From contig CAZNEH010000003.1 of assembly GCA_964572175.1 (NCBI GenBank), positions 7,488 to 68,384 on the forward strand: 60,897 nucleotides of DNA. Reading direction: 5' to 3'. A model generated the notes under the pieces. That model searched no databases, was not told the DNA's origin, and saw nothing but the letters and a program-made list of their open reading frames with translations. This document shows positions 18,999 through 60,797 of the stretch, piece after piece. How positions within the stretch are numbered: position 1 is the first letter of the stretch; every line of letters starts with the position of its first letter. Made by a program: the position numbers and the translations under genes. Source of the DNA: an uncultured Gammaproteobacteria bacterium. Its GTDB lineage: Bacteria > Patescibacteriota > Patescibacteriia > UBA9570 > CAZNEH01.

Positions 18999-19000
18999 TT

Positions 19001-19804: not shown

Positions 19805-19820
19805 ACTATTTTGAGACTAT

Positions 19821-19849: not shown

Positions 19850-19867
19850 GTTATGTAAACAGATATA

Positions 19868-20218: not shown

Positions 20219-20227
20219 AGTTATTTT

Positions 20228-20256: not shown

Positions 20257-20284
20257 GTTGTGTTTTGCGACGGCGCAAAGACAT

Positions 20285-20306
20285 AAAAACAGTACTTGAG
20301 TACTGC
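20285..20306 (-). terminator. intrinsic terminator after 20350-21885
   Basis: Minus strand GCAGTACTCAAGTACTG hairpin followed by T5. Confidence 0.55.
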
Positions 20307-20349
20307 TTTTACGATTTAAGATTGTTGTGTTAGATTGTGGATAACCGTA

Positions 20350-24378: not shown

Positions 24379-24425
24379 CCTGTCCTCTCCCCCCGCCCTC
24401 TCCACCTTCGTGGAGAGGGAGCTAT
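24379..24425 (+). repeat. copy C of the CCCTCTCCAC hairpin repeat (inverted relative to copy A)
   Basis: TCCTCTCCCCCCGCCCTCTCCACCTTCGTGGAGAGGGAGCT. It matches the reverse complement of 5106-5149 with one mismatch in the loop. Confidence 0.8.
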
Positions 24426-25419: not shown

Positions 25420-26223
25420 TTATGATGAGGCTGAGGAGTAGCGTTTAATGGTGGCGTTCCAAAATAAGCGACTTCCGACAGTAAAGATTATAGTGAGCCC
25501 AAAGAAGGTGAAAATCCAAGGCCAGTCGAAAATTCCTAGCATGGCTTCGGCTGGGATAGCGAATAGTAATAAGAAGGGCCAGAAAGTGCTGAGAACATAT
25601 TTTAAGGTTCCGCTAAAAAGGTTTCGAGGGTAAAGACTCATGGTATTAGACTGAAAATAGATTTGATTTAAAGAGTTGGCGCGGATAAAGATAAAAATAA
25701 GTCCAGCGAAAAGATAGAAAATAGAAAAAGTGATTAAGATGGAGCAGATAAATAAGAATATGCCAAATAATACTCCGCTAAAAGTAATGATATTAGGAAT
25801 TTGAATTAAGGCATAGATTAATAATCCGATGACAGCTAAAAAAGAAATCATGACGGAGAAAGTAAAGCGTTGAGTGGCAGTAAAAAATTGTGCATCAATA
25901 GGCTTAGTAATAATCCAATCAAAGTCCCCTTTTCTAACTTGGTCTTGGAATTGTCGCAGAGACGGAAAGATAAACATGTAAAGTAAATAAAAACTGAGTT
26001 GTTGCATACAGAAGATAACGATGATTTGCCAGAAGTTCCAACCAGCGAGCATGTCGGTAAAATTAAAAACAATACTTAAAAAAGCAAATTGGATCAAGGT
26101 CCAAATAATAGTGCTCATAGTATCAGACCAAAAATCGGTGCGGTACATTAAACTAGCCATTAAGTCGCGCTTAATGAGGGTGATCCAAACTCGATAGTAT
26201 TTTTTAATTTCCGACCGCTTCAT
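25420..26223 (-). CDS. ABC-2 family permease, type B copy 2
   Basis: 267 aa, about 6 TM. It ends in KRYSSASS, like 27008-27811. Confidence 0.7.
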   Translation of the reverse strand: MKRSEIKKYYRVWITLIKRDLMASLMYRTDFWSDTMSTIIWTLIQFAFLSIVFNFTDMLAGWNFWQIIVIFCMQQLSFYLLYMFIFPSLRQFQDQVRKGDFDWIITKPIDAQFFTATQRFTFSVMISFLAVIGLLIYALIQIPNIITFSGVLFGIFLFICSILITFSIFYLFAGLIFIFIRANSLNQIYFQSNTMSLYPRNLFSGTLKYVLSTFWPFLLLFAIPAEAMLGIFDWPWIFTFFGLTIIFTVGSRLFWNATIKRYSSASS

Positions 26224-27007
26224 ATCTTTTGACGCCTAGTTTAAAGACTAAATTAGTTAATAAATAACAAATAATTATCCAGACACAAGTAACTATTCCA
26301 CCGACAATCATTTCTTGAACAGAAGCTTGGGCTTGTAAAACTCTAATCGGAAAATAAATTAAATAACTAAATGGCAGGTAAACAAATATATCTTGGATTA
26401 TTTGAGGAAAGAAAACTAGAGGGACGACTGCTCCACTTAAAAAGGAAATAATATATTTAATGCTGCGATAAAAACGTCGAGATTCAGTGATCCAAAAAGC
26501 AGAGAAAGCAAAAATTATTTTTATCCAATAAGAAAGAATAAAGGCTAAGGCAAAAAATACAAAAAATAATAATAAATTAATTAAACTAGGAATAGCTAGG
26601 TAAGAGTTAAAGAATAAAAAGATTCCTAAAATAAATAGACCATTGAATAAAGTACGCATTAGACCATGGGAAAGTTCGTAATAGAAATAAGCCCAGATGT
26701 AGCTATATGGTTTTACTAAGTTAAAAGATAAAGAGCCCTCTTTGATGTCCCAAATAACTGGCTCGGCACTGAAAACAGAAGTGGCCTGATTGATAAGCCG
26801 AGCAAAAATATAATAAGTTATCATTCCAGCTAAAGTGTAACCCTTGATAGTCTCTTGGCCAGGGATTTGGAAAAGGGCTGTCCATAAGACAATGTAAACT
26901 ATTAATGGGTAAAGCTCTGAAAAAACATCAATAAAAAAATTGAACTTATATTGTAAGCTGTCTTGCCACATCATTTTTGCAAAAGAGGTATAGTTTTTGA
27001 TTTTCAT
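26204..27007 (-). CDS. ABC-2 family permease, type A copy 2
   Basis: 267 aa, polytopic. Its N-terminus resembles that of 27792-28586. Confidence 0.7.
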   Translation of the reverse strand: MKIKNYTSFAKMMWQDSLQYKFNFFIDVFSELYPLIVYIVLWTALFQIPGQETIKGYTLAGMITYYIFARLINQATSVFSAEPVIWDIKEGSLSFNLVKPYSYIWAYFYYELSHGLMRTLFNGLFILGIFLFFNSYLAIPSLINLLLFFVFFALAFILSYWIKIIFAFSAFWITESRRFYRSIKYIISFLSGAVVPLVFFPQIIQDIFVYLPFSYLIYFPIRVLQAQASVQEMIVGGIVTCVWIIICYLLTNLVFKLGVKRYEAVGN

Positions 27008-27811
27008 TTACGAGGAAGCTGAGGAATAATGTTTAAGCGCAAATCGCCAAAAAGAAATGGCGATTACGAGTAATATTATACTGAAAAATAAGGCAAATGT
27101 AAAATAGGGCCAGTTATTTTGTCCTAATAAGACTTGGGAAGGGAAAGTGGCAATGATAGTAATAGGAAGAATATAGTCAAAGCCTAGCTTTACTCCTCTA
27201 CTGTAAATAGTGGTTGGATAACGAGAAGTTTGGAGTAGGTTTTCGAAGAATCTACCTAAGCCAGTGGAGTTAATGGTCCAGAAACTGGTAGAGGCAATGA
27301 TTAAAGTGATTGCGTAAATAAAGACAACTGAATTTAATAGTAATAAAATAAATAATAAAATATTTTGCCAGGCAAAAACTAAAGAAGTATTAACAAAGAT
27401 ATAGTACCAGAAATAAATTAAGGGCAGATGAGAAAATAAATCAAAAACGTCAAACACCTTAAAAGAAGTGATGAATAAAGTATTAACTGGTTTAACTAAA
27501 GAAAAATCAAAGTCTCCCCTTTTTACATCACGAGGAAAATAATAAAATAAGTTGCGGTGGAAGGTCATGACAATAATAGCTTCTATAGTTAAGTAAGTAG
27601 CTATTAAAACTAGGATTTCATTAAAGTTCCACTCGCCTATGGCTGGAATGTTTAAGTAAATGGCGTAGAAAAATACGATTAAGATTAGACCACGAAGAAT
27701 TTTACCGATTAAGGCAGTAAAAAAACTTAAGCGGTACATGGTATGTAAAAAGAAATGTACCCTAATAAAGTATTTTGAGATTCGTAGATATTTAAATACC
27801 TTCGCCAGCAT
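27008..27811 (-). CDS. ABC-2 family permease, type B copy 1
   Basis: 267 aa. It ends in KHYSSASS. Confidence 0.7.
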   Translation of the reverse strand: MLAKVFKYLRISKYFIRVHFFLHTMYRLSFFTALIGKILRGLILIVFFYAIYLNIPAIGEWNFNEILVLIATYLTIEAIIVMTFHRNLFYYFPRDVKRGDFDFSLVKPVNTLFITSFKVFDVFDLFSHLPLIYFWYYIFVNTSLVFAWQNILLFILLLLNSVVFIYAITLIIASTSFWTINSTGLGRFFENLLQTSRYPTTIYSRGVKLGFDYILPITIIATFPSQVLLGQNNWPYFTFALFFSIILLVIAISFWRFALKHYSSASS

Positions 27812-28586
27812 ATCGTTTTATTCCTCGTTTATAAACTATGTAAACTACTAACAATAATCCTAAGATCCATAAGCAGGCTTCTCCGGCATAGAATAATATT
27901 TCAGCATAGGTTAATTTATCTAAATATATTTGCATGGGTAGCCAGTTAACAAATTTAAACGGTAAAGCAAAAAATATTTTTTGAAGTGACCCTGGGAATA
28001 AGGTTAGCGGGATTAAAGCACCGGAAGCGATTTCCATAACTCGACGCACTACAAAACGGGGTCCCCAAGTTTGTTCAAACCAAAAAGCAATAATAGAGCC
28101 TAGGTAAAAGATTAGGAAGTGAATCAAGGCGGCGACTATGATAGCTAGGATTACTAGGATAATATTTTGAGGAGCTATTAGAAAGTCGAATAAGAATATA
28201 ACAATAAAGATAAAAGAGATTAACCCTAGTAAAAGAGTGATTACTCTACGGCATAGGTCGCGAGTGAGCCACCACATTGTTGGGTTTACTGGGCGGACTA
28301 GGTTTATGGAAAGGAGTCCTTGATTGATGTCGTCGTTTATTTCGTCTCCTTGAGCGGTTAGGAGGATGAAGCTATTGATTAGCCCGGCCCCGAGTAAGTA
28401 GGTAATCATTTGCTTGAGGGTGTATCCGCCAATAATGTCTAGGGCTTGGGATTGGTAGATGTAATACCACAAAGCAATGGTGATTAACATGGTGATTAAT
28501 CCCCCGATTATTTCTAACCAAAAATTCATCCGGTAAGCCAGATATTCTTGCCAAGTAAGTTTTGCTACTAGCCAGTATTTTTTCAT
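27792..28586 (-). CDS. ABC-2 family permease, type A copy 1
   Basis: 264 aa, polytopic. First gene of the operon. Confidence 0.7.
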   Translation of the reverse strand: MKKYWLVAKLTWQEYLAYRMNFWLEIIGGLITMLITIALWYYIYQSQALDIIGGYTLKQMITYLLGAGLINSFILLTAQGDEINDDINQGLLSINLVRPVNPTMWWLTRDLCRRVITLLLGLISFIFIVIFLFDFLIAPQNIILVILAIIVAALIHFLIFYLGSIIAFWFEQTWGPRFVVRRVMEIASGALIPLTLFPGSLQKIFFALPFKFVNWLPMQIYLDKLTYAEILFYAGEACLWILGLLLVVYIVYKRGIKRYAGEGI

Positions 28587-30499: not shown

Positions 30500-30515
30500 A
30501 TAAGATTTTATTTGT

Positions 30516-30542
30516 GCTGTTGTGATCTAGCTTGTCTAGATC
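30516..30542 (+). repeat. 3'-half copy of the triple-hairpin repeat
   Basis: GCTGTTGTGATCTAGCTTGTCTAGATC is identical to the right halves of 51818-51884 and 53820-53888. It overlaps the stop of the GT4 gene. Confidence 0.75.
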
Positions 30543-31570
30543 AGCAATTTTTTCAATTTTTCCGCTTGTAACTTCCAAGTGAATTCGTTAGCGACGCGGT
30601 TTTTGCCTTGTTCACCAAGGCGGTCAGCTAAGTCTTGGTTGTATAAAAGTTGAATGATGGCTTTGGCGATCATGTGAGGGTCTTCGGGGTCAACTAGGAA
30701 GCCGGTTTTGCCGTCGACAACAGCATCAGGGACGCCGCCAGAGTTACCAGCAATGACAGGTTTGCCGAAAGAATTAGCTTCGAGAAATACTAAGCCGAAA
30801 CCTTCGACGTCTTGGTCTGGTAAGGCGCGGGAAGGCATGATGAAAAGATTACAGCCAGCGTACAAGCGAGCGATTTCTTCTTCTGGAACGCGGCCCATGA
30901 ACTCGACGTTTTTTTCTAACTTATGTTTTTTTACAAAATCTTCAAGTGTGTCGCGGTAAGGACCGTCGCCAGCAATAAGATATTGGGCTTTAGGAAATTT
31001 TTTGATTACGGCAGGCATGGCGCGCAAGACCATGTCGTGGCCCTTGCGTTTTACAAGGCGACCCACAGAAAGGATTGTTGGTTGTTCAGGGCTAGAGGGT
31101 AGATCAGGGTACTTGGCTGGAGTGAGGTTGGGGCCAGGAGGAATAATGGAAATTTTATATTGATTACGGCCAGTTAAAAGTTTTTGTAATTCCCGTTTAG
31201 TGTAATTAGAAACAGTAGTGACTCGTTCACTAGCGTTTAATATTTTGGTCATGAGCCATTTTTTGCGAGGATATTTTAAAGGATAAGTAATATCCATGGC
31301 ATGAGTCATGGTAATGTATTTAATCGGCAGGACTTTACTAAGGAGCCAAACTACGGTGCCTAAAGGTAAAACTTGGCCGACTAAAACTAGTTCTATTTTT
31401 TCTTTCTTTATGGTTTTAGTTATAGTTAAAAAAGATCTGAGCCAGTGTTTTTTAATAACCAGAACAGATATCTTAGTGGACGGTAAATTTTGGACCATGT
31501 TAGCGTAGTAGTTGGCTACGCCTCCTACTTGAGGTGGGTATTCTAAAGTGACTAGCAATGTTTTTCTCAT
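30536..31570 (-). CDS. glycosyltransferase family 4
   Basis: 344 aa with EGFGLVFLEANSFGKPVIAGNSGGVPDAV. Confidence 0.85.
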   Translation of the reverse strand: MRKTLLVTLEYPPQVGGVANYYANMVQNLPSTKISVLVIKKHWLRSFLTITKTIKKEKIELVLVGQVLPLGTVVWLLSKVLPIKYITMTHAMDITYPLKYPRKKWLMTKILNASERVTTVSNYTKRELQKLLTGRNQYKISIIPPGPNLTPAKYPDLPSSPEQPTILSVGRLVKRKGHDMVLRAMPAVIKKFPKAQYLIAGDGPYRDTLEDFVKKHKLEKNVEFMGRVPEEEIARLYAGCNLFIMPSRALPDQDVEGFGLVFLEANSFGKPVIAGNSGGVPDAVVDGKTGFLVDPEDPHMIAKAIIQLLYNQDLADRLGEQGKNRVANEFTWKLQAEKLKKLLI

Positions 31571-49854: not shown

Positions 49855-50877
49855 ATGACAGAGCCAGGAGCTAACCCTCGAATTGATCGACCAACTGCCG
49901 GAGCTAATTTTTATGTGCCAGATAAAATTAAAGAAGTTCCAGAAAAAATTAGAGAAGAGGTTAAGGGTGAGTACAGAAAGTTAATGGTGGCTACCCTAAA
50001 AAGATATGATCGTAATCAGACTCCAGTTGATGTGGCCATGCCTGCCTTTTTAAGTTTACAGGAATCTCATTTTGAAAGAGCTATAGAAAGAGTTCGTTTA
50101 AAAAGAGAGGCTCAAACAGATGAGTTAACTGGTCTTTTAAAAGTGACGGCCATGACTAATCAATATGAGATTACTCGAAAGAGATTATCTAATGAAAGTA
50201 CTCCAGAAGATCAGTGTGCAGTAGTTATTACTTTTGATTTAGACTTTTTTAGACAGATAAATGATAAAATAGGACATCCAGGAGCAGATACTATTTTAGC
50301 AGAGATTGGTCAAAAATTAGGAGATGAGTCTAACAATTTAAGACCTGGTGATATTGCTGGTCGGGTAGGTGGAGACGAGTTTGCAATGATTTTAAGCAAC
50401 ATAAAAAAATCTGAAGTAGAAACAGCTATTCAAAGAATTCATCAAATAGTTGGGTCTATTTCTAGACCAGAAATTGGAGAAGTAAAAAGTAGTTTTGGAG
50501 CTTTGATTATTAATAAGGGAGATACTAGGCTTTTTGATGATGTGCGAACAGCAAGTGACGAGGCGACCTATGGAGTTAAAGACTATGGTCGTAATGGATA
50601 TGCTATTGTTGATGGGGATCAAGTAAAGATTGTTAATAGAGATGAGAATGGTGAATATCAAGAAAGTTACCAAGGGACTGAAATGCCTAAACCAGATGAG
50701 GCTCATCGAATAAAAGAAGTTGGTAATGCAATACAAAGAATTACCGAGGAAATGGATAAAGCTAAAGAAAAGCCTTGTTTTGATAAAGCTAAAATGACTG
50801 AAGTGGAGTCAGCTGTAGAAACTATTGGTAAAGCTTATTTTGAAGCTAAGAATTGTAACGAGAGTATTACAGAGTAG
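49855..50877 (+). CDS. GGDEF-domain protein (putative diguanylate cyclase)
   Basis: 340 aa with RVGGDEFAMIL and upstream FDLDFFRQINDKIGHPGAD. The N- and C-terminal extensions are of unknown function. Confidence 0.8.
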   Translation: MTEPGANPRIDRPTAGANFYVPDKIKEVPEKIREEVKGEYRKLMVATLKRYDRNQTPVDVAMPAFLSLQESHFERAIERVRLKREAQTDELTGLLKVTAMTNQYEITRKRLSNESTPEDQCAVVITFDLDFFRQINDKIGHPGADTILAEIGQKLGDESNNLRPGDIAGRVGGDEFAMILSNIKKSEVETAIQRIHQIVGSISRPEIGEVKSSFGALIINKGDTRLFDDVRTASDEATYGVKDYGRNGYAIVDGDQVKIVNRDENGEYQESYQGTEMPKPDEAHRIKEVGNAIQRITEEMDKAKEKPCFDKAKMTEVESAVETIGKAYFEAKNCNESITE

Positions 50878-51808
50878 TGATTGGACGAGATTGAGTAATG
50901 TAAAACTTAGATTTATATAAAGCCCATTCGATATCTTGAGGGGAGCCATAGTGCTCCTCTATTTTTTGACAGATAATAGAAAGTTTTTTGATTTGAGCGT
51001 CAGTAAGTTTTTGTTTGCTGGCCTTAGTTTTAGGAACCTTCTTCTCCTCTACTCCAGCAGTTTTAGTTTTTACGATCATCATGTTTTGTTCAGAAATGTT
51101 TTTGTCTAAAATTCGAGGAATGTTTCCTTTGGCGATAACATAGGTGTCTGGAGTAACTAAGCCACCAACAATAGCCTCTCCTAACCCGTAGCCAGCTTCT
51201 AAAACTATTTGGTCAAGATCGCGGGTAACAGGATGAGCAGTAAAGGTTATGCCAGAGATTTCGGATTGAACCATGGTTTGGATGACGACCGCCACAGAGA
51301 CTTTAGCGTCTTGTAAGTTTTTTTCGTAGCGGTAGAAGATGGCGCGCGGAGTAAATAAAGAGGACCAGCATTTTTTGACGCTGTCTAGTAAATCTTTATT
51401 GGTTACGTTTAAATATGTTTCTAACTCACCAGCCCAAGAAGCAACTTTAGAATCTTCGGCTGTGGCAGAAGAACGAATAGCTACGAACTTGGCTTTTAGT
51501 TTTTTAAAGTCAGCTTCGATTTCTTTGGCAATGTCTTTTGGGAATTCTACGTCGGCAATAAGATCTCTGATTACATTAGAAGCTTTGTCAACGGAATTAA
51601 TATCTTCAAAGTTTACTTTTTTTAATTGAGTAATAATTTCGACATTAAGGTCGGTCTCTTCTAAGAAACGGTCAAAGGCATTGGCCGTAACTACAAAGCC
51701 AGGAGGAACCGGGATTTTAGCTTGAGTCATCTCGCCCAAAGAAGCGCCTTTTCCCCCAGCCTCGTTCACGCTTTTTTTATTAATTTTTTTGAAGTTTTTA
51801 CAATACAT
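50867..51808 (-). CDS. stand-alone PpsA/PPDK-type N-terminal ATP-grasp (nucleotide-binding) subunit
   Basis: Start set at MYCKNFKK (51808). The track start is a GTG inside repeat 51818-51884. Motifs: AGGKGASLGEM, VAIRSSATAEDS, and an end at YITQSRPITTL, the usual end of the PPDK_N domain. There is no swivel or TIM-barrel domain. Confidence 0.85.
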   Translation of the reverse strand: MYCKNFKKINKKSVNEAGGKGASLGEMTQAKIPVPPGFVVTANAFDRFLEETDLNVEIITQLKKVNFEDINSVDKASNVIRDLIADVEFPKDIAKEIEADFKKLKAKFVAIRSSATAEDSKVASWAGELETYLNVTNKDLLDSVKKCWSSLFTPRAIFYRYEKNLQDAKVSVAVVIQTMVQSEISGITFTAHPVTRDLDQIVLEAGYGLGEAIVGGLVTPDTYVIAKGNIPRILDKNISEQNMMIVKTKTAGVEEKKVPKTKASKQKLTDAQIKKLSIICQKIEEHYGSPQDIEWALYKSKFYITQSRPITTL

Positions 51809-51817
51809 AGTTTCGAG

Positions 51818-51884
51818 GACCGAGATAAACTCGGTCACAACAGCCCATCCTAACAGTGCTGTTGTGATCTAGCTTGTCTAGATC
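51818..51884 (+). repeat. triple-hairpin intergenic repeat, full copy
   Basis: Three consecutive hairpins: GACCGAG-ataaa-CTCGGTC, ACAACAGC-loop-GCTGTTGT and GATCTAG-cttgt-CTAGATC. Confidence 0.85.
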
Positions 51885-51893
51885 TATAAAGAT

Positions 51894-52901
51894 TTATTTG
51901 ATTATTTTTATTATACCCTTATCAGCATTAATTTCAACCTTGTCTCCGTCTTTGAGGGCTTGAGTGGCGATTTTAGTAGCGACGATGCAAGGTTTTTTTA
52001 GTTCGCGGGCGACGATAGCGGCGTGGCAAGTGATACCGCCTTCGTCTGTGATAATAGCTGCGGCGCGCTTCATGGCTGGTAAATAACGAGGATCGGTCAT
52101 AGAAGCGACTAGGATGTCCCCTTCTGTTATGTTTTTAGCTTGGTCAACTTTGGTTATTATTTTAACCGGGCCCTCTACTTTTCCAGGATAAGCAGATTGT
52201 CCTTTAATCTCTTTAATGTTTTTTACATCATCAAAAAAATGTTTGATTAATTCAGGATTATAAAATATTTCTTCGCCTTGACCACTGTGTTTTATGAGAA
52301 TAAATTTTTTTCTGGGTGAGATATCTGGTATTATGCCTGTTTTTAAAAAATTATTAAATTCATCAATGGTTAAATAAAAAAGAGTGTCTTTTTCTAAGTC
52401 TAATTCTTGTTCTACTTTTGGTAAAAGATTTCTTTCTAAGGTAAAGCATTGTTTATGAACGTTTTCATATTTTTTTCTGATAGTAAAAGCAAAATCGCGG
52501 ACGTCTTTATTTTGATGGTGTTCAGGGGCTTCGTAACCGATCATGATAATATTACTAAAATTAACAAAGTATTTAATTAATTCTTGTAGAGCATTTAAAT
52601 TATTTGAATGTTTTTTGTTATAGAATAATTCAAATTCTTTTTTCTTTTGACTATATTGAGATTCTATTTTTTTTAGTTTATTTAAATCTAGATGTTTGTA
52701 TAAATTTTCATGTCTTAAAAGAGCATCTTTTTTGGGCATGAAATGATAAAAAGTGTCTTCTTTAAGGATAAGGTAGAAAGGATTTGGGGAGCAGTTAAAG
52801 AATTTTTTGTTTTCATTAAAAAGTCCTTGAATAACAATAGAGGCTCCTAAAATGGAATAGTCCCTTTGGTGTTTTTCGTAGTCTAAGTCTTTATTTAACA
52901 T
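51894..52901 (-). CDS. swivel-domain protein 1: unknown N-terminal domain + PEP-utilising-enzyme mobile (phosphohistidine) domain
   Basis: 335 aa. C-terminus: GQSAYPGKVEGPVKII...GDILVASMTDP...TDEGGITCHAAIVARELKKPCIV...DGDKVEINADKGII. Confidence 0.85.
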   Translation of the reverse strand: MLNKDLDYEKHQRDYSILGASIVIQGLFNENKKFFNCSPNPFYLILKEDTFYHFMPKKDALLRHENLYKHLDLNKLKKIESQYSQKKKEFELFYNKKHSNNLNALQELIKYFVNFSNIIMIGYEAPEHHQNKDVRDFAFTIRKKYENVHKQCFTLERNLLPKVEQELDLEKDTLFYLTIDEFNNFLKTGIIPDISPRKKFILIKHSGQGEEIFYNPELIKHFFDDVKNIKEIKGQSAYPGKVEGPVKIITKVDQAKNITEGDILVASMTDPRYLPAMKRAAAIITDEGGITCHAAIVARELKKPCIVATKIATQALKDGDKVEINADKGIIKIIK

Positions 52902-52907
52902 GGTTTT

Positions 52908-52916
52908 ATTATATCA
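52908..52916 (-). promoter_or_regulatory. extended -10 promoter, leaderless, for 51894-52901
   Basis: Minus strand TGATATAAT. The ATG at 52901 is 6 nt after the -10. Confidence 0.5.
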
Positions 52917-52963
52917 CAAATGGTTTTTTTGCCTAATTTTAGCCTATTTAAGGGGGTTATATC

Positions 52964-52992
52964 TTGACAAGGGGGTGAAAGTGTGTTATCCT
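52964..52992 (+). promoter_or_regulatory. promoter of GC-rich cassette 6a
   Basis: TTGACA (52964-52969), 17 nt, TATCCT (52987-52992). Confidence 0.6.
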
Positions 52993-53075
52993 ACTATGAT
53001 CGTAGCGCAAGGCAAATTCAGCCTTAGCGGACGTGAATCGACACGCTCTTCCCCCACCCTCCACCAGGAGAAACG

Positions 53076-53744
53076 ATGAACCCTATCGTCAACACCCCCT
53101 CCCCGGCCTACATGGCCTTCCTGTCCCTCCTCATCAGCCAGACCATCCAGTCCGGCAACCGCATCGTCGTGACCGTGTGCCACGGTGACAAGCGCAAGCG
53201 TGAGAGCGATGGCGTCGAGGAGCTCACCGAGCTCGGTCACGCCCAGGGCGGCGTGGACGCCATGTTCATCAAGAGCGTCGTGCCCCAGGGCATCAAGCTC
53301 GAGATCCTCTGGTCCGGCCATCACCGGACGGATCAGATGGCCAAGATCCACGCGGGCGTCTTCCCCGAGGCCGAGGTCATCAAGGACGAGGAGCTGGACT
53401 TCGTGCCCGCCTACGAGGCTCACCTGGATGGTGATCTCGACAAGTTCAAGGCCGAGGTCGCGGCGATCAACAGCGCCGGCGGCACGGTGGGCAATGCCCG
53501 GATCCTCGCGGCCAAGCACGAGATCTCCGGCTACGCCTCCCAGATGACCGATGACGTGTCTGGCTGGGTGACGAAGCAGCGGGCCCAGATCGTCCTCGGC
53601 ATGGGGCACCGCTGCTGGGCCAACGGCGCGGCTCACCACGACACGCCCTTCATGCCGAACGTGGGCGACATGTACTTCCACCTGGTCTCCGCCGATGGCG
53701 AGATCATGGACGTGATCTACGTGCCCTGCCCGCTCTCGGCCTAG
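53076..53744 (+). CDS. GC-rich cassette: divergent histidine-phosphatase-superfamily-like protein (CHG in place of RHG)
   Basis: 222 aa with AGGAG 5 nt before the ATG. Blocks align by eye to the PGAM/SixA-type pattern: IVVTVCHGDK...LTELGHAQ (RHG...LT..G..QA), ILWSGHHRTDQMA (SS..RA.QTA) and QIVLGMGHRCW (late His). Confidence 0.45.
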   Translation: MNPIVNTPSPAYMAFLSLLISQTIQSGNRIVVTVCHGDKRKRESDGVEELTELGHAQGGVDAMFIKSVVPQGIKLEILWSGHHRTDQMAKIHAGVFPEAEVIKDEELDFVPAYEAHLDGDLDKFKAEVAAINSAGGTVGNARILAAKHEISGYASQMTDDVSGWVTKQRAQIVLGMGHRCWANGAAHHDTPFMPNVGDMYFHLVSADGEIMDVIYVPCPLSA

Positions 53745-53766
53745 CGACGACGGCCTCACGGCCAAG

Positions 53767-53819
53767 CCCCCTCCTCTTCATTCCCTCACGGGAGTGCGGA
53801 GGACGGGGCGCTTTTTTTT
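53767..53819 (+). terminator. terminator of cassette 6a
   Basis: CCCCCTCCTC...GAGGACGGGG stem (9 of 10 paired) followed by CGC and T8. Confidence 0.6.
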
Positions 53820-53888
53820 GACCGAGATAAACTCGGTCACAACAGCACAAATTAAAAAAGTACTGTTGTGATCTAGCTTGTCTAGATC
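53820..53888 (+). repeat. triple-hairpin intergenic repeat, full copy inside GC-rich patch 6
   Basis: Same arms as 51818-51884; the middle loop differs (cacaaattaaaaaagta) and the middle stem is one bp shorter. It lies exactly between the 6a terminator and the 6b promoter. Confidence 0.85.
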
Positions 53889-53898
53889 ATCAACTAGG

Positions 53899-53927
53899 TT
53901 GACAAGCACGGTGAAATGCGGTTAGAT
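53899..53927 (+). promoter_or_regulatory. promoter of GC-rich cassette 6b
   Basis: TTGACA (53899-53904), 17 nt, TTAGAT (53922-53927). Confidence 0.6.
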
Positions 53928-53963
53928 AAAAGGGAATTCAAGCGTCCGAAGGAGGGTAAGAAA

Positions 53964-54890
53964 ATGAGTGTGATTCCGTTCAGTGAGACTGTGGCTACGC
54001 GTTTGGCTGGTGGTGAGCATCTGATGATCCTGGTGCAGCCGGGCGAGAGGGTCGATGGCAAGCTGACCAACATCGGAATGCGGAGAAGTCGGTGGGCGGC
54101 CGAAGTTCTCAAGGGATTGATACCTGATCGGTTGGTGCCTCAGGTATTCTATGACCCCAGTGATCCAGTGGCTCGTTGTACGGCCGAGGTCATCGTCGAG
54201 GGCACTGACGGGCATCTGATGGGTACGCACAGCTCTCTGGATTCTGGAGGCTTGCCCCAGAATACGACCGAATGGGTTCAGAGCCCTCATCGTCAGTCTG
54301 GCACCGTGAACATCGGAGTGAGCGTCACGACCAAGGTTCTGGCTGGAGGTAAGCACGAGAACTTTGGTCCGGGATGCCTGATCTATTACTTCGTCTCCTC
54401 TGGGGGGAGGATCGTGAGCACGATCTACGGTTACCCCGGCCTGGAAGAAGAGCGTGCTGATCGTCGGCGAGAGGGTTACAACTCGGCTGAGAGCCATGTG
54501 GCTGTGGTCTTCATTCGTGACCTGGAAGCAGCCGTGGAGATGGTTGCTAACCCTAAGATCCATGGTCGGCTTCGAGAGTTGAGCTACCAGACCGTGAGGA
54601 TCTACGCCCCAGGACCTGCGATACTAGAGTTCATGGAGGCTGCAGATCAGTTCCACCGGCTCCTGGAGGATACTCGGATCGAGCTTGACACCAGGTTGAC
54701 TCACGCTGACTCGATGGACACGCCGATCCACCTGGCCTGGGGTATCGGTTGGAACCTGAAGCTGGGCCAGGCAGCAATTGTACTTGGTCAGTGGGAGTGG
54801 CGTTGGTTTGGTCCGAAGGTCAAGGCCGTGATCTATTTCATCGACCAGAAGACCCTGCGGGTCTGCGACCACGAGACTATCGAGGTCTAA
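53964..54890 (+). CDS. GC-rich cassette: 308-aa protein with a degenerate histidine-phosphatase-like N-terminal half (QPG in place of RHG)
   Basis: Start set at MSVIPFSETVAT (53964), 8 nt after GAAGGAGG. LMILVQPGERVDGKLTNIGMRRSRWAAEVL and VFYDPSDPVARCTAEVI follow the same spacing as the RHG...LT..G and S...RA.QTA blocks. The C-terminal half is of unknown function. Confidence 0.4.
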   Translation: MSVIPFSETVATRLAGGEHLMILVQPGERVDGKLTNIGMRRSRWAAEVLKGLIPDRLVPQVFYDPSDPVARCTAEVIVEGTDGHLMGTHSSLDSGGLPQNTTEWVQSPHRQSGTVNIGVSVTTKVLAGGKHENFGPGCLIYYFVSSGGRIVSTIYGYPGLEEERADRRREGYNSAESHVAVVFIRDLEAAVEMVANPKIHGRLRELSYQTVRIYAPGPAILEFMEAADQFHRLLEDTRIELDTRLTHADSMDTPIHLAWGIGWNLKLGQAAIVLGQWEWRWFGPKVKAVIYFIDQKTLRVCDHETIEV

Positions 54891-54908
54891 GCGGTGGAGG
54901 ACCGCTGT

Positions 54909-54953
54909 CAGCGCAAGGAGTTCTCTGCGGAGAGCTCTGAGCGCTGTTTTTTT
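54909..54953 (+). terminator. terminator of cassette 6b
   Basis: CAGCGC...GAGTTCTC-TGCG-GAGAGCTC...GCGCTG hairpin followed by T7. Confidence 0.6.
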
Positions 54954-54963
54954 CTGCTTTAAG

Positions 54964-54988
54964 ACCGCGGGTATGGGACCCCGCGGGT
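54964..54988. repeat. CCGCGGG hairpin repeat copy
   Basis: ACCGCGGGTATGGGACCCCGCGGGT, between cassette 6b and the stop of 55002-56021. Confidence 0.75.
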
Positions 54989-55001
54989 ATTGATAATAGG
55001 A

Positions 55002-56021
55002 TTATGAAGTATAAGATTGCTTAATGATTTTAACGATACCGTGGTTGGCTTTGACTTCTACGAGCATGCCGTCGCGAAGGACCTTGGTGGCTACTTGAGT
55101 GCCGATGACGCAGGGTTTTTTAAGCTCTCGGGCTAGGATGGCGGCGTGGCAAGTAATACCCCCTTCATTAGTAATAAAACCGGCTGATTTTTTCATTAAA
55201 CTTAAATATTCAGGACGAGTCATGCCAGTAACAAGAATGTCTCCTTGGTTAAAGTTTTTAACTTTACGAGGATTTAGAATTATTTTTACTCTACCTTTAA
55301 CCTTGCCCGGATAAGCAGTTTGCCCTTGAATAAGGTTTTTATTTTTTTTGGGCTGAAGCTGTTTTTCTATAGCCAAAGCTTTTTTACCAGAGAATATTTT
55401 AATTTGACCCTTTTCAACTACTACGGCACCGTTTTTATAACGAGCTTGGAGAATTTTTTTAGGCGGGAGCTGGCCGGTTTGCCAGTAATTATCAAGTTCT
55501 TCTGGAGTCATATTTAAAGCGTCGGGTGAGATTTGTTTGCCCATGACAACCATAAATTTTTCTATTTCAGTATAAACTGGCTCGGCGTATACTCTAGCCT
55601 CTTCTAATTTAGGTAAAAGTTTCTTTAGTTTTTGCGGAGACAGATAATCAGTGACGAATTTCATTCCCCGATGCGGACCGCCGTAGACATGCATTAGCTC
55701 AAGGAACTGATTAAATTTTTCCTGGTCTATTTTACGGCGTTTATTTTTTTTAATAAAATCTATGATTTCATCGCTAGCTTTGATAATATCTTTGCACCAC
55801 TTAAGATGATTTTGTTTGAGAAGGTATTTTCCTAAAGAGTCTTTGTCGGCTTTATCGTAATAACAAGTACTATGACCTTGATGTGAGACCATAATTGCTC
55901 TTTTAAGATTTTTGCCCAAATAGGGTTTTAGAAAAGTAATATATTCTTGTCCTAAGTAGCCGCAGGTTAAAATACTCCACTGGCCAGACCAATTTTTTTC
56001 CCAAGTTTTGTTTTTTATCAT
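55002..56021 (-). CDS. swivel-domain protein 2 (unknown N-terminal domain + PEP-utilising mobile domain)
   Basis: 339 aa. C-terminus: GQTAYPGKVKGRVKII...GDILVTGMTRPE...TNEGGITCHAAILARELKKPCVIGT. The N-terminal region is related to that of 51894-52901. Confidence 0.85.
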   Translation of the reverse strand: MIKNKTWEKNWSGQWSILTCGYLGQEYITFLKPYLGKNLKRAIMVSHQGHSTCYYDKADKDSLGKYLLKQNHLKWCKDIIKASDEIIDFIKKNKRRKIDQEKFNQFLELMHVYGGPHRGMKFVTDYLSPQKLKKLLPKLEEARVYAEPVYTEIEKFMVVMGKQISPDALNMTPEELDNYWQTGQLPPKKILQARYKNGAVVVEKGQIKIFSGKKALAIEKQLQPKKNKNLIQGQTAYPGKVKGRVKIILNPRKVKNFNQGDILVTGMTRPEYLSLMKKSAGFITNEGGITCHAAILARELKKPCVIGTQVATKVLRDGMLVEVKANHGIVKIIKQSYTS

Positions 56022-57415
56022 AGCTTTGTAATAATTCCTTTAGTAGCGTCCACCTCAACTAAGTCCCCGTCTTTTAGGCTGGACAAGGCGGATTGGACGC
56101 CGACGATGCAGGGTTTTTTAAGCTCTCGAGAAACAATGGCGGCATGAGAAGTGACTCCACCCTCAGCGCTGACGATAGCTCCGGCAATTTTCATCAAGGG
56201 GACGAATTCCGGGCGGGTGTTAGGGGCGACTAGGATGTCCCCAGGTTCTAGTTTTTTAAAGTCTTTACGGCCCTTGATTATTTTTACCTTTCCTCTAACT
56301 ATTCCAGGATAAGCAGTACCTCCTTGAAGTTTATTTTTTTTATTTATACTATCTTGAACGCTTTGTTGCATTTTGTTTCCCCTTTTTCCAGAATAAGCCT
56401 TGTACTTAAAAACATCTTTGTTAAAAATATAAAAAGCTCCTAAGTACCTATTTTCGGCTTCAGTTAAAAGACTTTGCTTCGGTTTGTTGAAAATATTTTC
56501 TATTTCCCAGTAAAAGAAGTTTTCAATTGTTTTTAAAGGAAGGCCAGTTCTAATGCTGAATTGCTGAGCAATTTTTTTAAGGGATTCGGCAGACATTTGC
56601 TGATATGATTTACGAGCGTCTCTAAAATTACTAAGTAAAGCCAGGAGTTCGATGGTGGTTATCAATTCCGAAGAGAGTTTATATTTTTGGTATACTTTTT
56701 TCTTTTGCTGTTTTAAATTATTAAAGGTATTTTTTAATTTTTGAATTTCTTTTTTATCTAAGGACTTAAGTCTTTTTGAAAAATATTCTTTGGTTAGCGG
56801 CTTTATGGTAGCATAATCATTATGCATCCAATAATATTTTTGTTGGTGTTGGTCTAGATTTTTGGTAGTACTTAGATCCATTTCTTCTTGTTGAATAAAA
56901 GATGGTTCAGGAGGAGTGAGGATTGTTTCTAGATCTTTCTCATTAATATTTTTACTTTCTTTGTTTAGTTTTTTCTGTAAAATTATTTCCCCATAATAAT
57001 CAAAATTGTCTAAAAAGATTGAATTAGTCCAAACCTGAAGATAGATTTTATTAAATTCTTTAAATAATTTTAATAATTCTTCGTTAGTGTATTTAGAAAG
57101 ATTGGCTTCTAATATTTTAGAAACTATTTTTAAATAGGGTTTTATGTACTTGGTCTGCCAATTAGAATATAATTTAGGAATAAATTTTTTATCTTTTAAT
57201 TGCCGTTGGTAATAATATTGAGCACATTTTTTAAGCCCTCTTTTAGAAAGGTAAGCGTACATGAAATTGTCTTTTAAATAAACAACAATTTCGTATTGTA
57301 AAGGAGTTTGGCGATTATTTATTTTATAATTAAAGCAACTATGCAAAGGATAAGAAATATAAAAAGGTTTTACATCCGCAGCTTGTTGGTACCAGTTTAT
57401 TTTTTTTATATTCAT
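56018..57415 (-). CDS. swivel-domain protein 3 (long N-terminal domain + PEP-utilising mobile domain)
   Basis: 465 aa. C-terminus: GGTAYPGIVRGKVKII...GDILVAPNTRPE...SAEGGVTSHAAIVSRELKKPCIVG. The N-terminal block HQQKYYWMHNDYA is shared with 57459-58802. Confidence 0.85.
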   Translation of the reverse strand: MNIKKINWYQQAADVKPFYISYPLHSCFNYKINNRQTPLQYEIVVYLKDNFMYAYLSKRGLKKCAQYYYQRQLKDKKFIPKLYSNWQTKYIKPYLKIVSKILEANLSKYTNEELLKLFKEFNKIYLQVWTNSIFLDNFDYYGEIILQKKLNKESKNINEKDLETILTPPEPSFIQQEEMDLSTTKNLDQHQQKYYWMHNDYATIKPLTKEYFSKRLKSLDKKEIQKLKNTFNNLKQQKKKVYQKYKLSSELITTIELLALLSNFRDARKSYQQMSAESLKKIAQQFSIRTGLPLKTIENFFYWEIENIFNKPKQSLLTEAENRYLGAFYIFNKDVFKYKAYSGKRGNKMQQSVQDSINKKNKLQGGTAYPGIVRGKVKIIKGRKDFKKLEPGDILVAPNTRPEFVPLMKIAGAIVSAEGGVTSHAAIVSRELKKPCIVGVQSALSSLKDGDLVEVDATKGIITKL

Positions 57416-57427
57416 ATATTCTCTAGT

Positions 57428-57451
57428 GCCGCGGGTGCAGGGCCCCGCGGC
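57428..57451. repeat. CCGCGGG hairpin repeat copy
   Basis: GCCGCGGGTGCAGGGCCCCGCGGC, between two swivel-domain genes. Confidence 0.75.
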
Positions 57452-57458
57452 TATATAT

Positions 57459-58802
57459 TTAATGTAATTTTTTTACTATTCCTTTCTCTGTGTCTACCTC
57501 CACTAAATCTCCGTCTTTCAAGATTTTTGTAGCGATGCGGGTAGAAACAATGCAAGGTATATTTAATTCGCGGGAAACAATGGCAGCGTGGCAGGTCATT
57601 CCTCCTTCGTCAGTGATTAAAGCGCTGGCTTTTTTAATAGCCATGATATAGTCTGGGCTAGTCATAGAAGCGACTAAAATTTCTCCCCTTTTTAATTTAC
57701 TTACTTGCTTAGGTGAGGTTAATATTTTTACCCTACCCCTTATTTTAGGACCTTGGCTAACAACAGTGCCTTTTAACCGCTTTGTTTTAGGGTTTATTTT
57801 TTGTTCTAAGTAAGGCTTAATCGCTTGCTTAGCTTTTTGTCCGGATAGATAGTGAAGTTTATTTGTTTTTTCATCAAAGTAAAAGAAAGTATGAGCGAGG
57901 CGTTTTTTGATTTCAGAAGTTTTTACTTTTTTGTTTTTAGTAACTAAGTCTAGAACTTTTTGGCAATTGTAGTAACAAGCGTGTTCGTATGGAATGGGCA
58001 GTTGTTTTAAAAATAGATCAATATAATGATTGGCTAAAAAGATATAAAATTTACGGTAGTCTTGCCACCAAATAGAAAAACTTAACACATCAGCCAGGTC
58101 TTTTATTTCTTTTGATAAGTTATATTTTTTGGCTATTTGTTTTTTATTTATTCTGGGCCTGGAAATTGGTTTTAATTTTTTCTTTCTCTTGGCGAAATAA
58201 CTAACTGGCAGGACTCGAGTGTGGTGATAGCTGTTCAAGAGACAGAAATATTTTTGCTGGTGTTTTTTTAGGTCTTTGGTCTTAGATAGATCTAGTTCTT
58301 CTTGTTGGTAAAAAGAAAGTTTTTCTGGAGCTGAGAGGCGCTCAAATACGTGAACAAAATCTGTGCTCGGTACAGCTTTAGCTAGTTTTTGTTTTAGAAG
58401 TTCTTCCATTCCCCAATTAGCTAGTTCTGGTAGTAAAACAATGCCCCAGAATTTAAGATAAGCCTCATGCCACTCGGGATATAGCTCTAAGGCGTTTTGC
58501 TTGGTGATCTTAGCTTGGATCTTTAAAAGATCCTGCAAGTCTTTTTTCCAGAGTTTAAAGTATTTCAGGGAGTCTTTTTTTAGGTATTTTTGGTAATTTT
58601 TTATACCGGCGTTAATTAATTCTTCGCGGTCTACAATAAACATGACTTTTTCGTCATGCCAATACCCTATTGAATTTGGCCAGGGGTAAAATTTTTGATT
58701 AAAGTAAGAAAATCCTAAATTAAAATAGTCTGGGTAAATTAGCTTACCGTCAATTGGCCCCCATTTAAAAAGTTCTTTTTTAGGATTGATTTTTACCTGC
58801 AT
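57459..58802 (-). CDS. swivel-domain protein 4
   Basis: 447 aa. C-terminus: RGRVKILTSP...GEILVASMTSPD...TDEGGMTCHAAIVSRELNIPCIVST. Confidence 0.85.
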   Translation of the reverse strand: MQVKINPKKELFKWGPIDGKLIYPDYFNLGFSYFNQKFYPWPNSIGYWHDEKVMFIVDREELINAGIKNYQKYLKKDSLKYFKLWKKDLQDLLKIQAKITKQNALELYPEWHEAYLKFWGIVLLPELANWGMEELLKQKLAKAVPSTDFVHVFERLSAPEKLSFYQQEELDLSKTKDLKKHQQKYFCLLNSYHHTRVLPVSYFAKRKKKLKPISRPRINKKQIAKKYNLSKEIKDLADVLSFSIWWQDYRKFYIFLANHYIDLFLKQLPIPYEHACYYNCQKVLDLVTKNKKVKTSEIKKRLAHTFFYFDEKTNKLHYLSGQKAKQAIKPYLEQKINPKTKRLKGTVVSQGPKIRGRVKILTSPKQVSKLKRGEILVASMTSPDYIMAIKKASALITDEGGMTCHAAIVSRELNIPCIVSTRIATKILKDGDLVEVDTEKGIVKKLH

Positions 58803-59376
58803 CTTTCTTTAATTTTTCAAGATTATTTAAAGCCAGTTCCCTAAATTCATCAAAGAAAAAATTGTTTGTTAGCTTTTCTAGCATAACAAGTAATTTGTCT
58901 AAGTTTTTGTATTTATCTTTAATGTTGTTTATGCGGGTTAAGGTGTATCGATCTAGAGAGTCAAAATCGTGGAATATTTTTTTCTGTTCAGTGTCGTAAT
59001 AATCTGCCCAATTTTTTATATCTAATTGATCAAAGTCGTGAATAGAAATAATTTCGACTATCTCGGCTGATTTTTTTGGGTTGTAATTTACTTGCTCTAA
59101 AATGTTTTTAGCGATTTTTGCGCCGCTAAGCATATGAACAAGTTTGCCGTTCACAAGCTTGTCTGGGCCAGTAACGTGCTTAAAATGCTCTGGAAGGATG
59201 GCAGAGTGGCCAATATCGTGCATAATAGCAGCGGGAATTAGTACTTCTAAATCTAGGTCTAATTCTCCTTGGTAATTTTCTAGAGATTTAACAGTTTCTT
59301 GGGCATGGGTATAGTCATCAGGACGACCTTTTTTTAGTAATGGCGTGGCTAATTTCCAGATTTGATCATAGTTCAT
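58780..59376 (-). CDS. HD-domain metal-dependent phosphohydrolase
   Basis: 198 aa with H...HD (THAQETVKSL...AAIMHDIGHS) and later H/D residues (HMLSGAKIA, ISIHDFD). It is embedded in the swivel array with overlapping stops and starts. Confidence 0.75.
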   Translation of the reverse strand: MNYDQIWKLATPLLKKGRPDDYTHAQETVKSLENYQGELDLDLEVLIPAAIMHDIGHSAILPEHFKHVTGPDKLVNGKLVHMLSGAKIAKNILEQVNYNPKKSAEIVEIISIHDFDQLDIKNWADYYDTEQKKIFHDFDSLDRYTLTRINNIKDKYKNLDKLLVMLEKLTNNFFFDEFRELALNNLEKLKKDAGKNQS

Positions 59377-60797
59377 AGTATTGTGACGATTCCTTTATTA
59401 GCGTCTACTTCAACTAAGTCGTTATCTTTAATAATTTGAGTGCCAGTAGTAGTTCCAACAACGCAAGGTTTTTTTAGCTCTCTAGAAATAATAGCGGCAT
59501 GGGAAATTATTCCCCCGGTATCTGTAACAAAGGCCCCGGCTTTTTTCATGGCTACAATCAAATCTGGATTAGTGGCTGAAGAAACAAGGATGTCTCCTTT
59601 TTTTACTTTTTTGACGTCGTTTTCTACTAAAACTATCTTGGCTTGGCCCCGAACTTTGCCAGCATAAGCAGTCATTCCCTTGAGAATTTTTTGTTTACTT
59701 ACTTTCTTTTTTGTTTTTTTGGTGCGTTTTTTGATTTGCTTTTCACATTCTGAGCCCTGGTAAATTTTTACTTGGCCCCTAGTAATATAAAAACAGCATT
59801 TTTTAAGACGAGTTTTAGTAACATTACGGTATAATTCAGCATTACTATTTAATAAAGCGTCTTTTAGTTCAGGGAAAATTAAGTATTTTAGGTTTTTAAC
59901 AGGAATGTCTAAGCGATGAGAAAATTCGGCAAAGACCTTGTCCATGGCTACATAAGATTTTTGATAAGCGCCCTTGCGATAATCTTTGATATGCATGAAT
60001 TCTGAAGAGACTTCTAGTAAATATACTAAATTTCTTGGAAGATTAAATTTTTTAATGATTTCTTGTTTTTGCTTGGTAATATCTTTGTAATGCCGTAATA
60101 TTTTTTGCTTTTGTTTTTTAGGGTCTCCGGATTTTTTATCTTCGGCTAATAGTTTTTTAAGAAGTTTTTTATCCATGATTGGGCCAGAGTAAGCATAAGT
60201 AAGCCAAGAATATTTTTTTAAATAATTATCTAACGAGCCCTTATTAATTAATAAGTTTAAGCGAGCGATTTGAGCTTTTTGGACCTCAGATTGTTTTTCA
60301 GAAGAACTTAAAATAGAATAGTATTTGCTAGTGTTTTTAGGGATGTTTTTTTTGAGCTGTTTATTAATTTCATCAGATAAAAAGTTTTTTTCTAAACCAT
60401 CAACAAAAACTGGAATCCATCCCCAGGCTCTAGTTTTTCTGAGGATTTTGCGATAATCTTGATATAGTTTTAATAATTCTTTGTCGCTAAGCTTGTCTAC
60501 TCTTTTAACTGAATTGCTAAAATCTATTAATTGCTGGCTATATTTATAAATATTTCTTAGGCAGCGTTGATAGAATTTTTTGTCTTTTTTGATTTTGTTA
60601 AATAAAAAACGACCTACTTTTAAGGTCGATTCTGAATCAAAATAAAAACTAAGATGATCTTTTTCAATAATGCCCATGGTTTGCTTAACTACTGGGCCCT
60701 TGGTGATTTTAGCCATATCTTTGGTTGCAACAAGATCAGATATATACCAAGGATATACGTACATTTTTTTACGATCAAAAAAGAATTTTAACGCCAT
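59373..60797 (-). CDS. swivel-domain protein 5
   Basis: 474 aa. C-terminus: GMTAYAGKVRGQAKIV...GDILVSSATNPD...TDTGGIISHAAIISRELKKPCVVGT. Confidence 0.85.
   Translation of the reverse strand: MALKFFFDRKKMYVYPWYISDLVATKDMAKITKGPVVKQTMGIIEKDHLSFYFDSESTLKVGRFLFNKIKKDKKFYQRCLRNIYKYSQQLIDFSNSVKRVDKLSDKELLKLYQDYRKILRKTRAWGWIPVFVDGLEKNFLSDEINKQLKKNIPKNTSKYYSILSSSEKQSEVQKAQIARLNLLINKGSLDNYLKKYSWLTYAYSGPIMDKKLLKKLLAEDKKSGDPKKQKQKILRHYKDITKQKQEIIKKFNLPRNLVYLLEVSSEFMHIKDYRKGAYQKSYVAMDKVFAEFSHRLDIPVKNLKYLIFPELKDALLNSNAELYRNVTKTRLKKCCFYITRGQVKIYQGSECEKQIKKRTKKTKKKVSKQKILKGMTAYAGKVRGQAKIVLVENDVKKVKKGDILVSSATNPDLIVAMKKAGAFVTDTGGIISHAAIISRELKKPCVVGTTTGTQIIKDNDLVEVDANKGIVTIL

Follow-up and report, generated by a model that had tools for sequence, protein, structure and literature searches.

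The biochemistry of split dikinases is established for three enzymes, PpsAB (phenylphosphate synthase) from Thauera, CreHI from Corynebacterium and HpeHI from Rhodococcus, which work in trans via a transient complex (PMC12167813). Each of them has a separate ATP-grasp polypeptide, and a second polypeptide in which a substrate domain like that of rifampin phosphotransferase (RPH) precedes a swivel domain that is located at the C-terminus and bears the catalytic His. The two genes are adjacent, and a phosphatase or a downstream step is encoded nearby. All these features were also found in a gene array on a 60,897 nt stretch of DNA (contig CAZNEH010000003.1, positions 7,488 to 68,384; the window in the following) from an uncultured bacterium of the Patescibacteriota, and by analogy the chemistry is presumed to be the same: ATP + X-OH -> AMP + Pi + X-O-P via phospho-His. 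While the known enzymes have one carrier per ATP-grasp subunit, the array encodes five carrier/substrate subunits (S) for one ATP-grasp subunit (A), and related arrays have up to 11. We consider it likely that this array represents a multiplexed two-component dikinase of the RPH type.

The initial annotation had listed seven open reading frames (ORFs) on the minus strand between positions 50867 and 60797 of the window. The ORF listing confirmed all of them at these positions:

59373..60797, minus strand: S-474, carrier/substrate subunit of class b; PF00391 at residues 399-469 (E 8.5e-23), motif GGIISHAAI
58780..59376, minus strand: HD-domain phosphohydrolase, 198 aa; PF01966 (E 1.1e-06)
57459..58802, minus strand: S-447, carrier/substrate subunit of class a; PF00391 (E 4.3e-26), motif GGMTCHAAI, His405
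56018..57415, minus strand: S-465, carrier/substrate subunit of class d; PF00391 (E 1.2e-25), motif GGVTSHAAI
55002..56021, minus strand: S-339, short carrier/substrate subunit; PF00391 (E 1.5e-23), motif GGITCHAAI
51894..52901, minus strand: S-335, short carrier/substrate subunit; PF00391 (E 4.3e-26), motif GGITCHAAI
50867..51808, minus strand: A, stand-alone ATP-grasp (nucleotide-binding) subunit, 313 aa; PF01326 only (E 7e-102)

At its start the HD gene has a 4-nt overlap with the stop of S-474, and at its end an overlap with the start of S-447. The start of S-339 likewise overlaps the stop of S-465 by 4 nt. The Pfam scan assigned PF00391, the mobile domain of phosphoenolpyruvate (PEP)-utilizing enzymes, to the C-terminus of all five S proteins (E 8.5e-23 to 4.3e-26), PF01326 as the only domain to A, and PF01966 to the HD protein. 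PF02896, the PEP/pyruvate-binding TIM barrel, had no match in any of the seven proteins. This agreed with the domain content proposed from the sequence before, including the detached ATP-grasp gene and the lack of the TIM barrel. An independent assembly of run SRR8146440 provided two contigs that reproduced the window sequence on both flanks of the array.

The five S proteins share a C-terminal module of about 100 aa, in which the motif GG(I/M/V)(T/I)(C/S)HAAI was present in all five (alignment A1). The catalytic His was invariant in the five proteins and in 49 orthologs. PF00391 and the alignment thus both supported the common swivel module that had been claimed for these proteins. The swivel domains were 50%-60% identical among the five S proteins, while the N-terminal 230-370 residues (N-domains) showed only 23%-30% identity; a conserved swivel next to a divergent N-domain fits a common partner and different substrates. 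No N-terminal hydrophobic signal was seen in the translations of the five S proteins.

All five S genes had end-to-end orthologs elsewhere. S-447 belongs to class a, the best-conserved subfamily, for which Patescibacteria and DPANN archaea yielded more than 2800 homologs with a length of about 480 aa (40%-56% identity over the full length). The closest homologs were from Kuenenbacteria, Buchananbacteria and other Patescibacteria. Among the loci that we fetched (see below), end-to-end orthologs of S-474, S-465 and S-339 were present at 37%-49% identity. Examples are L050|1519-3060 (49% identity), L010|6159-7664 and L036|7301-8875 for S-474, and L049|2906-3964 (41% identity), L077, L070 and L090 for S-339, while full-length orthologs of S-465 in L023, L027 and L003 showed 32%-37% identity. 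The subfamily of S-335 (about 340 aa) had homologs with 40%-52% identity and 98%-100% coverage, and the division of the carriers into a short pair and a long trio therefore held. The idea that the short S genes were truncated by the GC-rich insert between them was rejected, as the form of about 340 aa is conserved and both short genes have full-length orthologs. The initial annotation had also considered that the N-domains might be debris of a single degraded gene. The five sets of full-length orthologs and the confident folds of the two modelled paralogs excluded this.

AlphaFold2 models were built for one long (S-447, 48 homologs) and one short paralog (S-335, 47 homologs); the domain architecture of S-474, S-465 and S-339 was judged by alignment and orthology. 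Both models were of high confidence (pLDDT 94.5 and pTM 0.91 for S-447, pLDDT 94.9 and pTM 0.89 for S-335). The top Foldseek matches of S-447 were the structures 5FBU, 5FBS, 5FBT and 5HV1 of RPH-Lm, the Listeria enzyme (E 8e-12, about 575 aligned columns), and RPH-Lm was also the top match of S-335 (E 6e-12, 264-304 columns). The sequence identity in these matches was 14%-20%. RPH was the sole solved fold that covered the N-domain together with the swivel in both paralogs, while pyruvate phosphate dikinase (PPDK), pyruvate kinase and Enzyme I matched the swivel of about 100 residues alone. The short form has the topology of the long form with fewer helices. Together with the Pfam results, the fold search supported the RPH-type order of a substrate domain followed by a C-terminal His domain, as had been proposed. 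The HpeH carrier subunit is related to RPH in the same way as S-447 and S-335 are (PMC12167813).

Judged by sequence, the array proteins are nevertheless not RPH proper. RPH is a single chain of 867 aa, while the array enzyme is split, and the array N-domains are 100-200 residues shorter than the RIF-binding domain of RPH with its 428 residues. NCBIfam alignments continued N-terminally past the swivel, into the center of the RPH-like PRK06241 models and the RIF_Ptrans_rph model, but the scores were far below the membership cut-offs (with RIF_Ptrans_rph, NF041857, the S proteins scored 53-71 bits and A scored 308 bits, compared to a cut-off of 999). With 335-474 aa the array carriers are also shorter than the carrier-only models of NCBIfam PRK08296, which have about 570-630 positions. 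The Arg in a WQDxRK motif (D248/R250/K251 in S-447) was invariant in the five S paralogs and the 49 orthologs. It is located about 25-30 residues upstream of the segment that aligns with RPH from residue 700 onward, and a profile search with alignment A2 against the PDB sequences gave homology to RPH from residue 700 onward only. R250 of S-447 is a candidate for the counterpart of the essential Arg666, one of the phosphate-transfer residues in the substrate domain of RPH (Arg666/Glu667/Lys670).

The A subunit aligned with residues 4-316 of RPH-Lm and ends at the boundary of the RPH ATP-grasp domain (residue 316 of RPH-Lm). It keeps the equivalents of RPH Lys22, Arg117 and Thr136, the importance of which was shown by mutagenesis, and of the Mg-binding Glu297 (PMC4844700). 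A search against the HpeI structure (PDB 9GOJ) gave E 1.6e-50. Two start positions are possible for the A ORF, 51838 and 51808. The ATG at 51808, which results in 313 aa, is the likely start, since the alignments with homologs and with RPH-Lm begin at residue 1-2. All 36 close relatives of A in JGI metagenomes (55%-67% identity) were stand-alone proteins, most of the complete ones having about 310-360 aa. Relatives with 41%-48% identity were canonical three-domain PEP synthases with PF02896, and one relative with 35% identity was an RPH-like single chain. A full-length PpsA was present neither among the scanned ORFs of the window nor in the contig extension past the window end. The possibility that A is a remnant of such an enzyme, as raised in the initial annotation, was rejected, considering its end at a domain boundary, the conserved catalytic residues and the stand-alone nature of all close relatives.

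Further evidence for the cooperation of A and S came from gene fusions. When the N-domain of S-447 alone was scanned against 1.8 billion cluster representatives, 373 relatives were obtained, 198 of them with E <= 1e-10. Several of these were single chains of 738-791 aa with PPDK_N, then the same N-domain, then the swivel. In P0265 (1147 aa) and P0346 (1213 aa), PPDK_N is followed by two swivel modules in one chain. These natural fusions support a functional tie between A and S. Together with the conserved adjacency of the genes and the in trans biochemistry of HpeHI, CreHI and PpsAB, they suggest that the detached A is likely to charge the carriers. In some loci, among them L064, L065 and L067, ORFs of 1300-3700 aa extend over many modules, which may reflect real giant fusions, a different genetic code or artefacts of ORF calling.

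We surveyed related loci in two directions, in stretches of 21 kb. For the first survey, 78 loci from GTDB species representatives were fetched with the S-447 profile and scanned with custom hidden Markov models of the swivel and the ATP-grasp domain. The second, reverse survey was anchored on A and covered the 36 close relatives from the JGI metagenomes. Overall, about 150 related loci with 1-11 tandem carrier genes were found in Patescibacteria and DPANN archaea. The 78 GTDB loci had 1-11 tandem S genes per array and never more than one complete A. The numbers of S and A genes were 11 + 1 in Nealsonbacteria, 10 + 1 in L023, 9 + 1 in L049, 8 + 1 in both L008 and L050, and 7 + 1 in Iainarchaeum, and the A gene was usually located at the 3' end of the array. 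In the reverse survey, 31 of the 36 close relatives of A adjoined 1-10 S genes, and the other five were mostly on contigs of less than 6 kb. An array from the candidate phyla radiation (CPR; L003) has five S genes, one histidine-phosphatase-like gene and one ATP-grasp of 322 aa. Another one, from Woesearchaeota (L004), has five S genes, a gene for a low-molecular-weight (LMW) phosphatase-like protein, one ATP-grasp of 310 aa and a HAD hydrolase. The S N-domains fell into at least 20 classes at a threshold of 120 bits, and the arrays mix these classes freely.

No accessory gene was universal in the arrays; only a recurrent mix of phosphatase families was found. Since the flanking genes also vary between the loci, the module looks self-contained. 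Among 96 loci with at least two core genes, two families with an RHG motif (histidine phosphatases) were embedded in 12 and 11 loci, HAD in nine, HAD-like in five and HD in five. Small cytidylyltransferase-like proteins were embedded in six and DUF5674 in five of these loci, and genes of the LMW protein tyrosine phosphatase (LMW-PTP) type also recurred inside arrays. Neither partner regulators nor DNA-binding genes were consistently present in the arrays. None of nine proteins had a match in PADLOC-DB, and on IMG/VR viral contigs only swivel-domain matches but no full-length S relatives were found. Both results argue against a role in defense or in phages.

The HD protein had been proposed to act in the same pathway, and the comparison supported this specifically for a partnership with S-474. 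The H..HD..H..D motifs were kept in five array-embedded orthologs, and the HD gene directly followed a class b S gene, an ortholog of S-474, in four of the five HD loci (L010, L036, L050 and the window). In the fifth locus a fragmentary carrier ORF precedes the HD gene. For the HD protein, the PDB sequences yielded no useful match (best E 0.58). The HD protein and the embedded phosphatases would act downstream on the phosphorylated product or reset the carrier. Past the window end the gene run continues for about 1.3 kb, where another HD-like gene and an ORF of 218 aa are located directly upstream of S-474 (L083, 6728-7983). This second HD gene encodes a highly divergent protein of 199 aa (E 5e-4), and the 218-aa ORF has a hydrophobic N-terminus. 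Both may belong to the same gene run as S-474. No further swivel genes were present in the contig extension of about 8 kb past the window end.

In the mechanism that we propose, A (50867-51808) would bind ATP, and the swivel of any one of the five carriers would dock on A. The carrier His would then attack the beta-phosphate of ATP, with AMP being released and Pi following after the loss of the gamma-phosphate. The swivel would return to its own N-terminal RPH-like domain, where the phosphate would be transferred to a hydroxyl of the bound substrate. Because the N-domains are very divergent, each paralog may have its own, probably small-molecule, substrate. We infer the charging of all five carriers in trans by one A, the stoichiometry, the small-molecule substrates and the role of the phosphatases. 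By the gene counts, a single A would serve every carrier of an array. Our best guess for the role of the system is the ATP-driven phosphorylation of several external metabolites, for trapping, activation or detoxification, in an organism that is nearly free of biosynthesis.

Several observations weigh against a multiplexed RPH-type dikinase. The residue at position -2 from the catalytic His, reported as Met for RPH, HpeH, CreH and PpsA, was Thr in four of the S proteins and Ile in S-474. The known split dikinases act in aromatic catabolism, which to our knowledge is absent from CPR bacteria; the array has no aromatic-catabolism context, and its hosts, Patescibacteria and DPANN, have a minimal metabolism. 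In sequence, true PEP synthases come nearest to A and the swivels (with PEP synthase 8A8E, E was 4e-73 for A and 9e-25 for the S swivel), so that the lineage is not simply that of an RPH. In addition, the array is broken by a foreign insert and by hairpins (see below), and co-expression is not assured. Several arrays had no A within 10 kb, among them the one with five S genes on a CPR contig of 922 kb (L001). A may thus not always be adjacent to the S arrays, or S may sometimes work without A. Further A genes may also be present in the genome outside the window and its extension. Finally, HpeH alone was able to transfer phosphate from 4-phosphoacetophenone to acetovanillone (PMC12167813).

This activity of HpeH also speaks for a reading in which the S proteins are phosphate-exchange enzymes that move phosphate from a phosphorylated donor metabolite to an acceptor independently of A, with A serving only one adjacent partner such as S-335. 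Many arrays indeed had no A in the fetched DNA, and A often directly adjoined a short S gene of about 340-365 aa (in the window and in L050, L069, L079, L023 and L085). However, many of the loci without A run into contig ends, A is also fused to the long N-domain of class a as well as to two S modules in one chain, and all swivel domains are similarly conserved. We consider an exchange activity of this kind quite improbable. It also seems unlikely that the S proteins are regulatory, autophosphorylating His carriers whose targets for signaling or phosphorylation are proteins or other macromolecules, with the embedded phosphatases (SixA-like histidine phosphatases, LMW-PTP-like, HD) resetting phospho-His or phospho-protein. 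VadK (Rv1127c) of M. tuberculosis, which is derived from PPDK and lacks the PEP-binding domain like the array proteins, autophosphorylates on His and illustrates that such an enzyme can be a regulatory histidine kinase (PMC13400623). The phosphatases that recur in the arrays belong to families with members acting on phospho-proteins and phospho-His, and the Thr at position -2 of four swivels corresponds to the state in PEP synthase and PPDK, in which it is a regulatory phosphorylation site (PMC12167813). VadK is, however, a single chain of ATP-grasp and swivel without an RPH-like substrate domain, and it does not occur in paralog arrays. The N-domains of the array have the fold of the small-molecule-binding domain of RPH, and all characterized members with the RPH domain order phosphorylate small molecules (PMC4844700, PMC12167813). 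Up to 11 divergent paralogs in an array resemble a substrate repertoire rather than signaling, and the lack of consistently present regulators also argues against a signaling function.

A fragmented or misassembled ppsA/ppdK locus, representing either pseudogene debris or a split gluconeogenic enzyme, is extremely improbable. Relatives of the array proteins are publicly annotated as 'phosphoenolpyruvate synthase/pyruvate phosphate dikinase', the ATP-grasp and swivel domains are homologous to those of PEP synthase and PPDK and nearest to true PEP synthases in sequence, and the motif GGxT[CS]H is common to both. But the PEP/pyruvate-binding domain is absent, the swivel is C-terminal and not central, the enzyme is split, and its substrate domain is unrelated to PpsA: the N-domains are RPH-like and not PpsA fragments. 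Moreover, all genes are intact and have full-length orthologs, the architecture is kept across two domains of life, and the window sequence was confirmed by two independent assemblies of the same run.

A multiplexed RPH-type dikinase could be compared to the phosphotransferase system (PTS), in which, as proposed for the array, a single general protein for energy coupling supplies many substrate-specific modules and the product is a phosphorylated small molecule. The likeness is in the logic only, although the His domain of PTS Enzyme I is homologous to the array swivel domain. The PTS uses PEP as donor instead of ATP. The array has neither membrane components nor HPr, and the phosphate would pass from the His straight to the substrate within the same polypeptide. 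It is conceivable, though we think it improbable, that Patescibacteria and DPANN archaea, as ultra-small symbionts, have an ATP-driven analogue of the PTS, in which one ATP-grasp subunit energizes a large set of fast-diversifying, substrate-specific carriers that trap or activate a variety of host metabolites inside the cell, while phosphatases and nucleotidyltransferases process the products. Such a system would be a major unrecognized route for the acquisition of building blocks in these organisms, and many of the 'PEP synthase' calls in their metabolic reconstructions would be wrong.

A large part of microbial diversity belongs to the CPR bacteria and the DPANN archaea, whose metabolism is mostly inferred from missing pathways. 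Split dikinases as such were already known, while the hub-and-spoke multiplexing and the spread through CPR and DPANN appear to be undescribed. We found no description of such arrays in the open-access literature, the only near match being a CPR resistome survey with a one-line count of 'rph-like' genes. A system with conservation across domains, up to 11 copies and a cost of two phosphoanhydride bonds for each phosphorylation is unlikely to be of marginal importance in small genomes. The public labels 'PEP-utilizing enzyme' and 'PEP synthase' can falsely suggest gluconeogenesis. If one A indeed serves many carriers, the subfamily of two-component dikinases, which was defined only recently, would extend from 1:1 pairs to a hub-and-spoke organization, and the arrays would provide a natural panel of divergent substrate domains for new phosphorylation chemistries.

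The genes of the array are separated by several elements that are no part of the system or may affect its transcription:

52921..55001, plus strand: foreign GC-rich insert, no part of the system; the GC-rich patch (52921-55160, 2.2 kb) has a GC content of 0.575 compared to about 0.35
53076-53744, plus strand: insert ORF of 222 aa; GC content at third codon positions (GC3) 0.92; promoter-like site TTGACA-17-TATCCT and ribosome binding site AGGAGA
53916-54890, plus strand: insert ORF of 324 aa; GC3 0.66; own promoter-like site, no family match
57428..57451, no strand assigned: GC-rich palindromic hairpin between S-447 and S-465, which are 43 nt apart; GCCGCGGG...CCCGCGGC
51818..51884, no strand assigned: triple-hairpin repeat element, located between S-335 and A; copies at 53820-53888 and 30514-30547

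The GC-rich patch noted in the initial annotation was thus real. Its ORFs had a GC3 of 0.92 and 0.66, while the flanking genes had 0.27-0.34. The insert leaves these flanking genes intact. The 222-aa ORF showed no family match and had no homolog among 5.8 billion proteins. An assembly chimera is unlikely, as L084, from a second assembly of the same run (Logan), spans the junction between S-335 and the GC-rich DNA. A palindrome related to that at 57428-57451 follows S-339 at 54967-54990; the two may represent terminators, processing sites or REP-like elements. A contig of the independent assembly ends at 57426. The units of the triple hairpin are GACCGAG..CTCGGTC, ACAACAGC..GCTGTTGT and GATCTAG..CTAGATC. 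The copy at 53820-53888 is located inside the GC-rich insert, and a Logan contig ends at this copy. Promoter-like sites were found for S-474 (TTGACA-18-TAAAAT at 60836-60807) and for S-335 (52935-52908). Based on the hairpins, the GC-rich insert and the promoter-like sites, the array probably comprises three transcription units rather than one operon: S-474/HD/S-447, S-465/S-339 and S-335/A.

Other patches of the window are GC-rich as well. The largest one (2121-5400, GC 0.59) contains an ORF on the minus strand (3783-4970) with a GC3 of 0.91 that encodes a Peptidase_M29 aminopeptidase (E 4e-46), indicating that the GC-rich patches encode real proteins with a codon usage foreign to the genome. 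Two direct repeats with about 70% identity (2180-2939 and 2922-3696) have ORFs without Pfam match. Smaller GC-rich patches are located at about 22.7, 28.7, 30.1-31.2, 36.9, 40.0-41.0 and 42.8 kb.

The neighboring genes encode PBP2, ProRS, AlaRS, ThiI, NAD kinase, an RNase J-like protein, glycosyltransferases and a GGDEF protein, which is an ordinary set for a small low-GC genome. Known RNAs or tRNAs were not found in the window. The GGDEF diguanylate-cyclase gene (49855-50877, plus strand) and the ATP-grasp gene are convergent, with an overlap of 11 nt at the 3' end of the latter. In L003, genes resembling those for conjugation or type IV secretion (PrgI, TraC-like, TraG P-loop; 18625-21458) follow the array and a DNA methyltransferase gene precedes it, which hints that some arrays sit on mobile elements. 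Positions 25420-28586 of the window hold a tandem run of four paralogs (264-267 aa), whose starts and stops overlap and which all belong to ABC2_membrane_6 (ABC-2 transporter permease). A 60-nt inverted repeat with 90% identity is present at 5086-5145 and 24383-24441 of the window, 19 kb apart.

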